Source: a virus | Lineage: Duplodnaviria; Caudoviricetes | Strand: one strand, 5' to 3' | IMG/VR virus record: IMGVR_UViG_3300032103_000031 | Location: 1 to 42,269 of that record | Length of the DNA: 42,269 nt | Shown: positions 24,653-32,646 of the stretch, in pieces | Numbering within the stretch: position 1 is the stretch's first letter | How the letters are laid out: each line of letters opens with the position of its first letter | Translations under genes and position numbers: made by a program | Notes under the pieces: generated by a model | The model's database searches: none | Seen by the model: the letters and a program-made list of their open reading frames with translations, nothing else | What the model was told of the DNA's origin: nothing

Positions 24653-25901
24653 CGGTCAGCTTCTCCTGTAGCAACTGGTTGAGGTTGCGCAGCATCAACT
24701 TGTTTGTGCCACGCCACACCGTTTTCTTACGCCCACTTGTTGGCACTTCAAACCGCTGCACCATTTCCAACTCGTGCATTGTATTGAGCGCGTATTCCAA
24801 CTCTCGTGTGCGTATCTGGCTGCGTGTCTTGAACAGTAGCTCACTTTGTGTGATGCCTAGCTCACCAGCCTCAAGCAGCACACGCCGCAGCTTGTCCAGT
24901 CCAGCGACAAGGCGCACACTCTCACGCTGACTGCCGAACAGTGCCGCAGCAGACTGCTTGTGGTGCGCGATAATCTTGATCGCGTGCCCCATGTGGTGGT
25001 GGTCAATCTGCCAGCTATTGTCATTGGCCGCCAGCAGTGCGGCTAGTCGGAGGATGTGATGATCCTCTCGTGCCTCGAAGCTGGCAATGAATGGATCACC
25101 GCCATCGCTCTCTCGGCGTCCTTCATACCAGCGCACAAACCTAGCTTTGGCGCTATCAGTGAGAGATATGCCCTTGGACGCCCAACGCTCGGACTGTGCG
25201 CGAATACGTAGCAGGTCGCTAGCAAGCTCATCCACGCTGATGCTTCCAGCATCTTCGGGCCAAGCGACAAGTCGCTTACGCTTCTCTTCAATGATGAAGA
25301 GGCAACGGCTAGTGAACCCGCCTTCAACAACATCGGGGTTGATAGCGCGCACCAACCAGCTAGGAGTGGAAGCGGCTGCGAAGGTGATGCACGCATTGCG
25401 GATGACGCGAGGGCCAGATGACAGTCGGCTGTAGTCTCGGAGTGTTGGACAATCATAGAGGTCTGTGAGTAGTCCTGGCATTGCAACGGTGTATTGCTCT
25501 TTACCAAGGAACGTGACCAACTCACTAACGATGATGCCAGCCATTGCGTCTCGACCATCACCAGATCGCAAGGCAAGCTGTTCAACAAGCTTTTCAGGTG
25601 TTGTTGATCCTGTGACTGTAAGAGCGGACAGGTCAAATCCAGCCGCTCGATATACAGCTTCGCACATGCGAATAGCTGTTGACTTGCGTGTTGTTCCTGC
25701 ATCTGCGCACAGCACCATGTAAAGGTTGAGGAACACAGGAGCCTTAGGCCGGTTGACTACAATCCTCCGGCCAATGGCATTCGACAGCAGCCACAGCCCA
25801 CACCAGAAGTCATAGGCCAGTGGCGTTTCCAGTGGAGCCATGTATTGCAGATAGCGATGAAGGAACGTGCCTTCCTTCACTGCATCACGGAACATGCTCA
25901 T
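24645..25901 (-). CDS. DUF3987/YfjI-like AAA+ replicative helicase with a C-terminal winged helix
   Basis: NLYMVLCADAGTTRKSTAI P-loop variant, SELVTFL, LTDLYD, GGFTSR arginine finger; start MSMF at 25901 after GAGGGG. Confidence 0.75.
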   Translation of the reverse strand: MSMFRDAVKEGTFLHRYLQYMAPLETPLAYDFWCGLWLLSNAIGRRIVVNRPKAPVFLNLYMVLCADAGTTRKSTAIRMCEAVYRAAGFDLSALTVTGSTTPEKLVEQLALRSGDGRDAMAGIIVSELVTFLGKEQYTVAMPGLLTDLYDCPTLRDYSRLSSGPRVIRNACITFAAASTPSWLVRAINPDVVEGGFTSRCLFIIEEKRKRLVAWPEDAGSISVDELASDLLRIRAQSERWASKGISLTDSAKARFVRWYEGRRESDGGDPFIASFEAREDHHILRLAALLAANDNSWQIDHHHMGHAIKIIAHHKQSAAALFGSQRESVRLVAGLDKLRRVLLEAGELGITQSELLFKTRSQIRTRELEYALNTMHELEMVQRFEVPTSGRKKTVWRGTNKLMLRNLNQLLQEKLTDE

Positions 25902-26167
25902 GTGCCATCCCCTCGGTCCATGTTGCACGGCAGACATGCCATGCGCAGGTTAGACCGTGCGTTGCGTCCTCCACGTGAGACAGGCACGATGTGGTCTATC
26001 GTAGCATGCCGCAGTGGTGTGTCCATGCCGCAGATCGCGCAGAAGCCGCACTGGTCAATCCACAGGGATTGCTTGATGTGCCTACGCCAAGAGGACTGCA
26101 TACCACGTGTCCCCTTGGCGCTGCTAGGCGAGCGTCGCTTCTTGCCCATCAGTCGTAGTCTGTCCAC
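25898..26167 (-). CDS. HNH endonuclease
   Basis: CAICG...TIDHIVPVSRGG.N..SNLRMACLPCN. Confidence 0.9.
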   Translation of the reverse strand: MDRLRLMGKKRRSPSSAKGTRGMQSSWRRHIKQSLWIDQCGFCAICGMDTPLRHATIDHIVPVSRGGRNARSNLRMACLPCNMDRGDGT

Positions 26168-26340
26168 GTCTCTTCACGTGGATACGACTTCATGCTGCCA
26201 TTGGCAACTGATACTCGTTCTCCGCGTTCGTATTCACGACGTTCTGCGTGCAGCCGCTCTAGCCCCTGGCTGTTGACGCGCAACACACGTGTCTGCACAG
26301 GCTTGCGCTGCATGTAGTCATCACGCTTCTTGTCCGTCAT
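26149..26340 (-). CDS. Hypothetical protein
   Basis: 63 aa, SD GGGAG, fills the gap after the polymerase. Confidence 0.6.
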   Translation of the reverse strand: MTDKKRDDYMQRKPVQTRVLRVNSQGLERLHAERREYERGERVSVANGSMKSYPREETWTDYD

Positions 26341-26352
26341 TCTAATCTCTCC

Positions 26353-27186
26353 CTACGCAAACTTGAGCTTCTTCATGTTGGACCACCGATGAACACCGCC
26401 CTCATCTGGATAAGATACCTTGAAGTCCGCAGGAATGATGAGCGGATCACCGTGGATGATGAGGGGTGCTTCTGCATACTTGCGCATGATGTGCGCCACA
26501 TGCGGCACGTCTCGCTCTCGACACATGGCAGTCAAGCTGTCATGGTTGTTGAACGGGATGCGTGCATACATAGGCCACTTGTCGTCCTCTTGTGACTTCC
26601 ACTGGACGCCGCACACGAAGTCACCAAGCGTTGACTGCGGCTTGAATGCAATGATGCTGTCCATCAGACTGTCATCAATGCGTGAGCCGAGAAACTCCAT
26701 GCGTCGGCCAAGGCATGTGTAGAGCGCGCGGTGTTCATAGACCTCGCGGATGATCGTGTCCCACCACCGCTTCAACTCTGGCGTGGCTCGATGGTAAGCG
26801 TCGTAAGCCAGTTGAGCTTGTGCAAGGGACATTCCAGTGACTGCTGCCAATCGGGCAGCTTGCATTCGGTAGTTAAGGCCGTGTCGGCATCGCTTGCTGA
26901 TGCCGCGGAGTGAGAGACTTCCGATAGGATGCTCTGGTGTGGCGTTTCCAGCATCATAGTAGTCAAACGTCGGAACGCTGTCATATGGCACTTTGAACAT
27001 TTCACTTGCAAGCGCAATGTGAGCATCGTAGGTGCCGGGGTTCTTTCTCGCACGTTCAAACTGCTCCTTCCAGCTATTGATCTTCCCTTCCCATCCGACG
27101 ATGCGCGCTTCTGCTTGCGCACCGTCGAAGTAAACGTAGCATAGACTTTCTTCCTTACCGCGCTTTAGGCTCGGTGTAGCCAGCAT
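26353..27186 (-). CDS. Family A DNA polymerase, C-terminal part (motifs A, B, C)
   Basis: Motif A YFDGAQAEAR, motif B RGISKRCRHGLNY, motif C NNHDSL; SD GGAGGA before ATG 27186. Confidence 0.9.
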   Translation of the reverse strand: MLATPSLKRGKEESLCYVYFDGAQAEARIVGWEGKINSWKEQFERARKNPGTYDAHIALASEMFKVPYDSVPTFDYYDAGNATPEHPIGSLSLRGISKRCRHGLNYRMQAARLAAVTGMSLAQAQLAYDAYHRATPELKRWWDTIIREVYEHRALYTCLGRRMEFLGSRIDDSLMDSIIAFKPQSTLGDFVCGVQWKSQEDDKWPMYARIPFNNHDSLTAMCRERDVPHVAHIMRKYAEAPLIIHGDPLIIPADFKVSYPDEGGVHRWSNMKKLKFA

Positions 27187-27301
27187 ACGGTCCTCCAAAG
27201 ATGCACATATGGTTCGCGTGGTCGTATCGGCACTTCTCACACACTGCACACTTGCAGGGCGTAAGCTGTGCTTCTAGGCGGATACCTTTCTGATCATTCA
27301 T
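27155..27301 (-). CDS. Hidden 48-aa Cys-rich protein inside the polA interruption
   Basis: MNDQKGIRLEAQLTPCKCAVCEKCRYDHANHMCIFGGPYAGYTEPKAR; AGGA upstream; spans the insert in the third frame. Confidence 0.55.
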   Translation of the reverse strand: MNDQKGIRLEAQLTPCKCAVCEKCRYDHANHMCIFGGPYAGYTEPKAR

Positions 27302-28976
27302 TGAAGTGTATCCTGTCCGCGATGAACATGCCTCGTAGCCGTTCTGGCTGGTTCTGTAGGTTCATGCCGCTGCCCCACAACGTGCTGCTGCTGGACAAGC
27401 GGCCCGGCACAAACTGTGTGCCAAACTGCTTGTAGTCGCTGCGCATTCGCCCGTCAGGATCAATGTCCGCTTCGATATACGTGGACAGCAGCTTATGCTG
27501 TTCCTTGTATTCGTTGAGGATGCCAAGCATCTTGCGTGCGGCTTCTGGTGTCCGTGGGCTTTCGATCATTGCATTGCGGTTCTCTTCATTCGTGCTAGTG
27601 TTCTTGCCAACAAGCCGTAGCTTCTGGAAGAACAACTCGGCAAGCTGCTTAGGCGACAGCGGGTTGGGGCTGATAGTCTCGTCATTTGCTGCAATGCGTG
27701 CGGCAACGACAAACTCTTCCCGCAGACGGTCCACATCACGGCCGAAGTCGTGCTGTAGCTGCTTGCGCATTGCAATGTCAATCTTGTTACCAAGCACCGT
27801 GGCTCCAACAAGATGTGGCTGCAAGCGCATCACATGTTCAGAGAAGAAGTCCCACATCTTCTGCTGCTTCAACTCCGCTTCAAGCCGGCGAGCAACCTCC
27901 CAAGTGATGCACACATCCTTGACGTTGTATTCCCAAAAGCTGCTGATATCGCCGCCCTCACGCCACGTGTCCTTCTCATCCTTGTAGAACGGATGCGTAG
28001 TGTATTGCGCTGTGAGGAAGCCAAGGTTATGTGGCCACGTCGGGTGGAGTGTGTGATGTGCAAGTAGTGTATCAATCCATAGCGGCCTAGCTTTGATGCG
28101 GTCCTTATACCAAAGCCATCCGCAGTCGAAGCCTCCATTCTGCGCGACCAACCGCACGCTCGCGTGACGGAGGACACGCTGAATGCTTCGTCGAACCCTG
28201 CTCTCATCAGCCAAAGACCAACGATTGTGTTCACGTCCACGGAAGTTGATGCACATGCCTTCGTGGGCATTGTTGGCGAATCCGACGCACGCTGTCTCAT
28301 TGGACACAACCTCCACGTCGAAGGACACCGGCAACGCTTCTTGGATCATCCTGTCACACCAGCGCACTGCCTCGTCTGGCGACGGATCGTAGAAGGCACG
28401 CACATCGTGCGGCTTCCAAACACCCCGCATCACCATGTCCAGCTTGCTTATGTCCAATCGGAAGATGGGTTCCAAGCTTGGCTTACGAAGGATGAGAGCG
28501 GGGTTGTTTGCAATGACAAAGCTGCGTTTGCCATCGCCCACGACCGAGCCACGCCACTTCTCGATACCGCTATCGCCAACCACAGCCTGCAATGCAATAT
28601 CCCCGAGGACAAGCACGTGCTTGCAGTTAGGCAACTGCGATAGCTCCCAATCAAGTAGTGCCTTCCAGTGGGATAGCTCATTGCGGCTCACACCCTTCTT
28701 GCTGGTCTGTGCATCGTCCACAAGCTGCTTCTTTACTACGTTGGTGATGTAGCAGTGCTGGCGGCGGATGCCAAACTTGGCGAGCACTTCCCACAGAAAC
28801 TTGCCGCTGCCGCCTACAAGTGGAGCGCGTAGCTCCACTTCACGAGGTCCGGGTGCTTCGCCTACGATGGCGAGGGCAGCATTGCAATCACCGTCAGCAA
28901 GGCAGTCCACAGACAGTCCCGCAGCCGATGCACGTTGCGCAAACTCCCTGTTCAGTTGTCCGATTGTTGTAGCCAT
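27294..28976 (-). CDS. Family A DNA polymerase, N-terminal part: UDG-like domain, 3'-5' exonuclease and thumb
   Basis: IVGEAPG..E...PLVG.SG, YITNVVK (family 4 UDG fold); FDVE, QNGGFD, YNVKD (Exo I-III); GRLSSS, NLQNQP; stops before motif A. Confidence 0.9.
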   Translation of the reverse strand: MATTIGQLNREFAQRASAAGLSVDCLADGDCNAALAIVGEAPGPREVELRAPLVGGSGKFLWEVLAKFGIRRQHCYITNVVKKQLVDDAQTSKKGVSRNELSHWKALLDWELSQLPNCKHVLVLGDIALQAVVGDSGIEKWRGSVVGDGKRSFVIANNPALILRKPSLEPIFRLDISKLDMVMRGVWKPHDVRAFYDPSPDEAVRWCDRMIQEALPVSFDVEVVSNETACVGFANNAHEGMCINFRGREHNRWSLADESRVRRSIQRVLRHASVRLVAQNGGFDCGWLWYKDRIKARPLWIDTLLAHHTLHPTWPHNLGFLTAQYTTHPFYKDEKDTWREGGDISSFWEYNVKDVCITWEVARRLEAELKQQKMWDFFSEHVMRLQPHLVGATVLGNKIDIAMRKQLQHDFGRDVDRLREEFVVAARIAANDETISPNPLSPKQLAELFFQKLRLVGKNTSTNEENRNAMIESPRTPEAARKMLGILNEYKEQHKLLSTYIEADIDPDGRMRSDYKQFGTQFVPGRLSSSSTLWGSGMNLQNQPERLRGMFIADRIHFNE

Positions 28977-29530
28977 GATCCCACCACCGCGTCCAGGCCA
29001 CGCTCGAAGTCTCGAACGCTGCCGTTGTTGAACATATCCACTTCTGTCACACCAGCATCCGGGCCGAATGTGATGTGACCGCGGCTGTCCTTGTCAAACG
29101 TCTTGCCCGCACGGTGCAGCCGCACAAGCAGTGTGTTCGCCGGACCAATGTAGTCAATCAGCGGCTTGGCTTCGTAGTCGAAGCCGCTATCGGAGCAGAT
29201 GAATACGTTGCTGACTGCGCGCCGCAACTTGCGCGCAGCAAGCTTGCCGAACACATGGAAGCCAAAGAACTCTTTGGCCCAATGCTCGGACAGGCTAATC
29301 TGCACATCACGGTAGCTGTAGTTGAACAGCAGTGGTGAGGGCGTGTCTTTCGTCGCTTCTAGCTCACGCACTTCTGCGTCCGTCAGATCAAAGAAGGCAC
29401 GCACGCCCTGCTTTAGCGGTGCGGACATTTTGAACATGATCGCGCCGTGCGTGCTCTTGTAAATATGTGATGCTGCGGTATCCTTGCCGCTGCGTGGGGG
29501 ACCGTTGAACAGGATAAGACGCTTTGGCAT
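28952..29530 (-). CDS. Deoxynucleoside monophosphate kinase
   Basis: NGPPRSGKDTAA P-loop, SAPLK, ICSDSGF..E; start MPKR at 29530. Confidence 0.85.
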   Translation of the reverse strand: MPKRLILFNGPPRSGKDTAASHIYKSTHGAIMFKMSAPLKQGVRAFFDLTDAEVRELEATKDTPSPLLFNYSYRDVQISLSEHWAKEFFGFHVFGKLAARKLRRAVSNVFICSDSGFDYEAKPLIDYIGPANTLLVRLHRAGKTFDKDSRGHITFGPDAGVTEVDMFNNGSVRDFERGLDAVVGSWLQQSDN

Positions 29531-31738: not shown

Positions 31739-32158
31739 TCAGACAGCGCGCACAGGTGTCGCGCGAGCCTGAGGCATACCCTGGTAATCCTCATGCTCAA
31801 TCTTGAGGATCACTTCCTGACCGATGAAGTCAGTGGCGATGAGACGATTGGCGATGCTCACACCGTGCATCTCACCAAACTTCTTGAGCATCCACTTGTT
31901 GCGTGGCGTCTCCTTGAGGGAGATATACGACGACAGCGTTTCACCGTCAGGGTTGCCGTCAGTGTAGTCAGCGGGATACTGGTCCGCGCTAATGTGGTAA
32001 GTGACAGCGAGCATAGGATTGCCGCTGGCCTTGCTGACCTTCAACTCCGCGATGCGCACGGAGCCACGGTATTCACCGATGGGCAGCGGCTTGGGCTGCT
32101 CGGCATCACCGATGTTGGTCTGAAACTCATAGACACTTCCCAACTCTGACATATTCAT
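31739..32158 (-). CDS. DUF669-like single-stranded DNA-binding protein
   Basis: PLPIGEY, SKASGNPML, FIGQEV..KIEHEDYQG; synteny with the Sak4-like ATPase. Confidence 0.72.
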   Translation of the reverse strand: MNMSELGSVYEFQTNIGDAEQPKPLPIGEYRGSVRIAELKVSKASGNPMLAVTYHISADQYPADYTDGNPDGETLSSYISLKETPRNKWMLKKFGEMHGVSIANRLIATDFIGQEVILKIEHEDYQGMPQARATPVRAV

Positions 32159-32622
32159 GTCTCCTGCTTGCTGTAGCGTTTGAATGCTGCGTCATAACCT
32201 TCCGCCGCAGCTACGGCTTCGGCGTGTGTGGCGTATGTTCGATCGAAAATCACGCCCCCACGCTGAATAACCAAGCGAAACCTGTCGCCTCGTGGATACA
32301 CGAGCTTGGCGTAGTCGCATCTGTCACTGTTAAGTTGATTGTCAGAGCAACTAGCTACCCGAAGGTTTGCCTTGCGATTGTCCAAGCCATTGCGATTGAT
32401 GTGGTCAATAAGAACATCACCTGCCTGCATTACAACGCGGTGCATTAGCACGGTTGTAGGCTCACCTTCGTAAACTCCACTGGCTACTACATATCCATGC
32501 GGATGCAGTCGCCATGTGTAATTTAGAAGAAGCTGCAGGTCATCCTCATCATACAGCACACCTTGACTACGCAATGCTTCTAGACGCTGCTGGCGTCTAG
32601 CGGACAGTCGAGTATTATCCAT
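32155..32622 (-). CDS. Free-standing HNH homing endonuclease (HNH plus AP2-like C-terminus)
   Basis: MHRVVM...IDHINRNGLDNRKANLR; C-terminal TYATHAEAVAA; AT-richer codons than its neighbours. Confidence 0.85.
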   Translation of the reverse strand: MDNTRLSARRQQRLEALRSQGVLYDEDDLQLLLNYTWRLHPHGYVVASGVYEGEPTTVLMHRVVMQAGDVLIDHINRNGLDNRKANLRVASCSDNQLNSDRCDYAKLVYPRGDRFRLVIQRGGVIFDRTYATHAEAVAAAEGYDAAFKRYSKQET

Positions 32623-32646
32623 CCATTCATTACCTCCTTGGGCCAT

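Follow-up and report, generated by a model that had tools for sequence, protein, structure and literature searches.

A phage family A DNA polymerase gene divided just before motif A, very probably a two-gene enzyme produced by gene fission

In a virus of the Caudoviricetes, the family A DNA polymerase (PolA) is very probably a natural two-gene, likely heterodimeric enzyme whose break arose by gene fission. The window analyzed here is the whole 42,269-nucleotide stretch of virus record IMGVR_UViG_3300032103_000031. Its plus strand carries genes for terminase, a P22-like portal, and the major head protein, while its minus strand carries a replication block with a Sak4-like annealing protein, a RecD/Dda-like helicase, a dNMP kinase, PolA, HNH, and a DUF3987 primase/helicase. 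An earlier note, made from the sequence alone, described polA as interrupted just before motif A and proposed either programmed ribosomal bypassing or a natural two-subunit polymerase. All of the positions on which it relied hold: the end of the N half, its stop, the frame of motif A, the GGAGGA-ATG, and the position and fold of the hairpin. The features are given below in the 5' to 3' order of the minus strand.

27294..28976, minus strand: PolA N-terminal gene, 560 aa, with UDG-like domain, 3'-5' exonuclease, thumb, GRLSS and NLQN; stops short of motif A
28476..28892, minus strand: family 4 UDG-like domain, residues 29-167 (PF03167, E 1.7e-16)
27870..28343, minus strand: 3'-5' exonuclease domain, residues 212-369 (PF01612, E 1.5e-8)
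27297..27317, minus strand: new C-terminal tail DRIHFNE of the N chain; the DNA includes AGGA (27314-27311) and the ATG (27301) of the next gene
27280..27313, minus strand: hairpin over the N-half stop, covering the AGGA and ATG of the gap gene; not conserved
27155..27301, minus strand: Cys-rich cargo ORF, 48 aa (CKCAVCEKC...CIFGGPYAGY); its ATG overlaps the N-half stop and its end overlaps the C-half start
27274..27276, minus strand: TAG stop in the C-half frame, within the gap; the C frame opens only past this TAG
27184..27196, minus strand: Shine-Dalgarno-like GGAGGA (27196-27191) and the ATG (27186) of the C half
26353..27186, minus strand: PolA C-terminal gene, 277 aa, with leader MLATPSLKRGKEESL, motif A (Asp21), fingers with motif B (His at B3), and motif C (HD)
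27148..27153, minus strand: GAA-GAA, the Glu-Glu of the C-chain leader; E12 and E13 are invariant in nine of nine split C halves

The two genes together cover one polymerase. The N-half ORF ends in GMFIADRIHFNE, with GAA at 27299-27297 and TGA at 27296-27294, and the Pfam family PF00476 is matched at its positions 5-148 on the N half and 151-355 on the C half. The features of a UDG-fused family A polymerase are present: motifs A, B, and C, a Klenow-type fold, and an N-terminal UDG-like domain. Alignment to uninterrupted homologues places the cut just before the motif A strand, as the earlier note had it. The continuous relative L014 gives an AlphaFold model of pLDDT 92.8 that matches a Bacillus Pol I fragment (E 7e-29); in this model the FI bridge is joined to the motif A strand (541-548) by a loop of four residues (537-540), and it is there that the cut lies. 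The N half modeled alone has a pLDDT of 92.9, and its tail is coil with a mean pLDDT of 71 at residues 551-560. Since motifs A, B, and C lie on the C chain and the thumb and GRLSS on the N chain, the anatomy of PolA implies that neither chain should work alone. The N chain of 560 aa and the C chain of 277 aa, the latter from the ATG at 27186, would be translated separately and then assemble; judging from sequence, the chains likely associate non-covalently into one family A polymerase. The traits of a bicistronic polymerase are found here, namely two intact ORFs that cover the enzyme, a retained start for the C half, and an inherited break with purifying selection.

Family 4 UDG enzymes usually have the motif HPA. 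The window's UDG-like domain keeps GEAPG and has NNPA at the place of HPA (consensus TxNPA), and it is likely inactive. In motif B, position B3 is His (C-half His102, 26881-26883, minus strand) in all 76 aligned family members, split or not, and it aligns with Phe in the motif B of Taq. B3 corresponds to F762 in E. coli and F667 in Taq. His at this position may influence nucleotide selection. A literature search for His762 gave nothing relevant among the matches listed, and no mention of His turned up in PMC6302109, while the residues named at B3 in the available part of PMC10201439 are Phe, Tyr, and Leu only. The window does not have the Phe at B3 that characterizes the N4-like UDG-PolA group (cluster 17 of PMC10201439), and N4-like phage polymerases are about 23% identical to it.

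The polA break is genuine. Positions 26300-29000 are spanned without gaps by two contigs from two studies with 0 or 1 difference, although both contigs are possibly the source of the window DNA; divergent relatives with the same break are stronger proof than the contigs. The two runs that contain window DNA are labeled aquatic metagenome, and no RNA run is listed as containing it. Two metatranscriptomic-labeled runs have no contigs on the window stretch, which has no bearing on expression. Cultured phages give only distant matches, at 25-30% identity, with no close relative among them, and no prophage or host was found because none of the 113 pattern matches in GTDB genomes is a relative of the window. 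Promoter and terminator scans of 26000-29500 stay at shuffle level, and the gap has neither. An 18-nt stretch within the N-half gene (27763-27780) has a reversed match elsewhere on the same contigs, probably by chance. Free-standing HNH endonuclease genes lie in the replication block at 25898-26167 and 32155-32646 (minus strand), and one adjoins the C-half gene downstream.

Relatives of the window include both split and continuous polymerases. A first scan with the C half found 117 viral loci, of which 80 were kept: 13, the window's own sequence among them, are split at the same site, and the remaining 67 are continuous, most having a FIAD-x-G-type junction. Three scans together give 174 loci, with 31 split, 142 continuous, and one without a junction; this total includes repeats of the same contigs, and L128 and L163 were counted as continuous after reading. 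Distinct split junctions number 15, window included, 14 of them with both halves. The gaps of L005 and L006 are 99.9% alike and those of L002 and L101 91%, so the independent junctions are fewer than 15. Split relatives are 61-75% identical to the window in the N half and 73-83% in the C half. In five unsaturated pairs dN/dS is about 0.03-0.10 for both halves, while in window-to-relative comparisons synonymous sites are close to saturation. These ratios indicate that both halves are under purifying selection, including the thumb, GRLSS, and motifs A-C.

From the N-half stop to the Glu-Glu codons, the gaps range from 28 to 823 nt, and the frame offsets are 0, 1, and 2 in five, three, and six of 14 junctions. 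The gaps hold between one and three small ORFs whose starts and stops overlap; some of these ORFs are common to close relatives. An ATG stands at -5 from the N-half stop in 11 of 15 junctions, with tails ending in DD, DE, NE, ND, or NV; in the remaining four it lies 2-4 nt past the stop. Where the junction is filled, the ATG at -5 is the start of the first cargo gene. L083 has no gap gene: its N half ends in FITDKMMFND followed by the stop, and its C half, MINKPNIKRSVEETLYFVYFD, begins at an ATG five bases ahead of that stop. Two overlapping cistrons like those of L083 may have been the founding state, into whose coupling point small cargo genes would have entered, adopting the same ATG; L083 could instead have lost its cargo.

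In the window the 143-nt gap is filled by an ORF of 48 codons, which was missed in the earlier note. A free-standing homologue lies in an unrelated phage region (L177), with 19 of 38 residues identical (pairwise E 2e-9). The gap ORF belongs to no Pfam or PHROG family, a protein search finds only itself, and its Atlas matches are below 0.9. BLASTN of the window's gap against the other 13 gaps (E 1e-3) gives no matches. Among the relatives' gap ORFs, those at L010:2828-3046 and L011:3713-3973 comprise a weak WYL-domain match (phrog_3715) and a member of phrog_4837, and no endonuclease is present among the 12 gap ORFs scanned. The conservation of the N-chain tail would be due at least partly to its DNA also serving as the ribosome-binding site and start codon of the gap gene.

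Separate initiation of the C half at GGAGGA-ccgt-ATG, the second proposal of the earlier note, gains support from the relatives, as does the two-subunit PolA that it implies: an in-frame ATG lies 9-22 codons ahead of YFD in all 14 split junctions that have a C half. A clear Shine-Dalgarno sequence precedes this start in only some (window, L002, L101, L004, and L011), and split relatives without one would need translation to be coupled with that of the ORF upstream. A protein search with the alignment of split C halves found 192 proteins, 120 of them among the matches listed. Stand-alone C halves make up the top 28 clusters among those listed matches (120 of 192); they are 258-294 aa long and none of the 28 has an upstream FIA motif. 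Their starts are those called by the gene caller, some on short contigs. The leaders are EEQL in 10, EESL in nine, KEQL in four, EETL in two, and a near variant in three, and a Met lies at most 11 residues ahead of YFDG in nine of the 28 (for example, MKEQLVYVYFD). In four further clusters, P0052, P0064, P0073, and P0077, a Met likewise stands a few residues ahead of motif A, with leaders MTDQPVFI, MASDDKPVLI, MKDRPVFI, and MPKKERPVFI. They may represent another fission at this site, or else an insertion that carries an internal Met; all three loci retrieved with P0064 are continuous.

A plain frameshift is unable to join the halves because the TAG at 27276, which the earlier note likewise missed, closes the C-half frame. 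Programmed bypass from GAA 27299 to GAA 27153 or 27150, as a late addition to an inherited split and in this phage only, is a very improbable explanation, even though the observations behind it are accurate. The matched GAA codons do lie 146 and 149 nt from GAA 27299, the frame does resume at AAG-GAA-GAA, and the hairpin over the stop folds above shuffle level, with z from -2.5 to -3.2. The loop also accepts seven or eight extra residues in two of 79 continuous junctions. However, the signals of a T4 gene 60-type bypass are the window's own: the last sense codon recurs within 12 codons of YFD at a single junction of 14, and only one of 15 has a hairpin whose z is below -2. Farther matches are scattered (20 and 29 codons upstream in L002, 43 in L007, and at the start ATG 15 codons upstream in L009-L011). 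The landing GAA is part of the conserved Glu-Glu of the leader, while the relatives' tails end in DD, DE, ND, or NV rather than NE, and their gaps reach 823 nt in all three frames. The gap of the window encodes a protein with an outside homologue, and the C half has its own GGAGGA-ATG. Nor would the fused junction be near normal, as the earlier note expected, for the hop would put 29-30 residues between LQN and the Asp of motif A, where 77 of the 79 distinct uninterrupted junctions have 24; the other two have 31 and 32, and insertions in this loop are seen in the continuous relatives L039, P0088, and P0109. The hairpin itself (27313-27280) has a predicted energy of -9.1 kcal/mol, with z -2.5 for the exact 34 nt, which were chosen post hoc, z -1.6 for 56 nt, and z -3.2 against mononucleotide shuffles. 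Its 3' arm shows no conservation among relatives, and its fold is ordinary for this genome: 29% of 468 37-nt windows in the early region fold at least as well. Since the gap gene's AGGA and ATG lie within the hairpin, coupling would be its plainer role, if any; it may be incidental, or it may hide the gap gene's start until an upstream ribosome opens it. The break is common to related phages and the hop signals are not, so two separately made chains are likely.

Removal of the gap from RNA, by a self-splicing or other intron, has a similarly slight chance of being correct. No Rfam family reaches gathering level in 26900-27600, where one chance match has an E of 5.4, and in L083 the distance from the stop to the Glu-Glu codons is 28 nt, too small for a ribozyme. 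The established size of group I and group II introns exceeds what would fit there. The window's gap is unlike the other 13, and the gaps contain tightly packed coupled ORFs. What speaks for an intron is that phage polA often contains group I introns, according to the available part of PMC10580990. Joining of the chains after translation, by a split intein or the like, is the least credible of these alternatives and may be nearly dismissed: the tails are six to nine residues long, the leaders extend down to two or three residues ahead of (E/K)E(S/Q)L, neither half has a Hint domain in Pfam, and a terminal His-Asn motif is absent. The gene might also be broken or misassembled, or the halves might act apart, with the exonuclease used alone and replication left to a host polymerase. 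This too is hardly probable, given two contigs unchanged across the break, relatives that share it, and purifying selection on both halves.

The history of the split was traced in trees of the two halves, the C-half tree with 107 rows built by a quick method and the N-half tree with 24 chosen rows. In both, split forms group together inside continuous relatives, and the continuous L014 pairs with the split L012 (98/96). Strict monophyly of the split forms is rejected (AU p 0.011). With the pairing of L014 and L012, this rejection requires a reversion, a recombination, or a second fission. As L012 shares both the DRMxFD tail and the EESL leader, one fission followed by one return, by re-fusion or recombination, would explain the trees most simply; two separate fissions may be involved instead. 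At L014:3980-4010 (IMGVR_UViG_3300009154_000255) the continuous PolA reads FIADPKYVYVYFD, nested among split relatives, and is a candidate re-fusion or recombinant. More tentatively, and with rather low confidence in the whole, the clade may be a readable history of PolA becoming an obligate heterodimer, the new ends being a selected interface and the junction an entry point for genes. That history would run from the intact gene through the overlapped two-cistron form (L083) and the cargo-filled form to a single chain once more (L014). The motif A strand would be held in the palm by the (R/K)-hydrophobic-x-hydrophobic tail together with the (E/K)E(S/Q)L leader, and translation of the cargo gene would set the supply of the catalytic chain.

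Several known systems resemble the window's polymerase in part. The closest in position is that of the OM43 phages MEP401 and MEP402 and their group I relatives (Zobellviridae), in which a small unknown ORF separates two ORFs for the polymerase, a case where PMC10580990 leaves an intron open. In the MEP401 record (OP830906), gp13 ends in NLQN...LFLSRYGE before its stop, a 77-aa unknown ORF follows, and gp15 starts with MILNADAKALE at the motif A strand. PolA is thus cut at the same place as in the window, but in a distant lineage, with no UDG domain, an N half of 387 aa, and a tail and leader unlike the window's; MEP401 is not among the three phage records matched by the window's C half. Because its polymerase is distant and lacks the UDG domain, the fission in the window's clade is likely independent. 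In comparison with MEP401, the window's clade has a gap-free overlapped relative and 15 junctions, which favor fission. The S-SBP1-like, T7-type PolA (PMC10201439; also covered in bioRxiv 10.1101/325100 as an exonuclease/polymerase split) is likewise a family A fission with a new stop, an overlapping start, and a predicted heterodimer. Its cut lies between the exonuclease and polymerase domains, whereas the window's lies inside the polymerase domain, with the thumb and GRLSS on one side and motifs A-C on the other.

Split family B enzymes offer further parallels. The bicistronic gp43 of T4-like phages and the split PolB of Methanothermobacter (cited in PMC3061061) are made as independent subunits from genes whose spacing runs from 2 bp to 3 kb and whose intercistronic DNA is diverse, but they belong to family B, and the T4-like cut is at the finger tip (PMC3061061). 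The PhiKZ polymerase (bioRxiv 10.64898/2026.09.30.755723) is a stable two-chain enzyme split within the palm, although it has a B-family fold, is cut in a large insertion, and comes from a jumbo phage. In Aeh1 an essential enzyme is made in two pieces, NrdA-a and NrdA-b (PMC3045599), which have new tails at their termini and a gene lying between them; that gene encodes a homing endonuclease and the tails are proven essential, while in the window's clade the cargo varies and the role of the tails is putative. The split family B enzymes and Aeh1 NrdA show that two-chain enzymes of such a kind work. In T4 gene 60 (PMC7026636), the ribosome passes between matched GGA codons over 50 non-coding nt, a hop that needs a stem-loop at take-off and a signal in the nascent peptide. 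Only the window shares with it a stop inside a stem-loop after a codon that recurs downstream; its gap is a gene, and relatives do not share the signals. Searches of the open-access literature turned up neither a report of the split in the UDG-PolA clade nor any biochemical study of a PolA divided ahead of motif A, and a literature search on gp43A/gp43B was empty.

The break in the window is therefore not the rare recoding event that the earlier note had hoped for. The comparison, with its gap-free overlapped relative and its variable gene-filled gaps, settles that fission can account for breaks at this site, with no need of an intron or a hop. The loop ahead of motif A is permissive, has been cut repeatedly among family A polymerases, and lends itself to the engineering of split polymerases. 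Because close relatives have the enzyme as one chain, this natural two-chain PolA is a system in which assembly and tail function can be studied.
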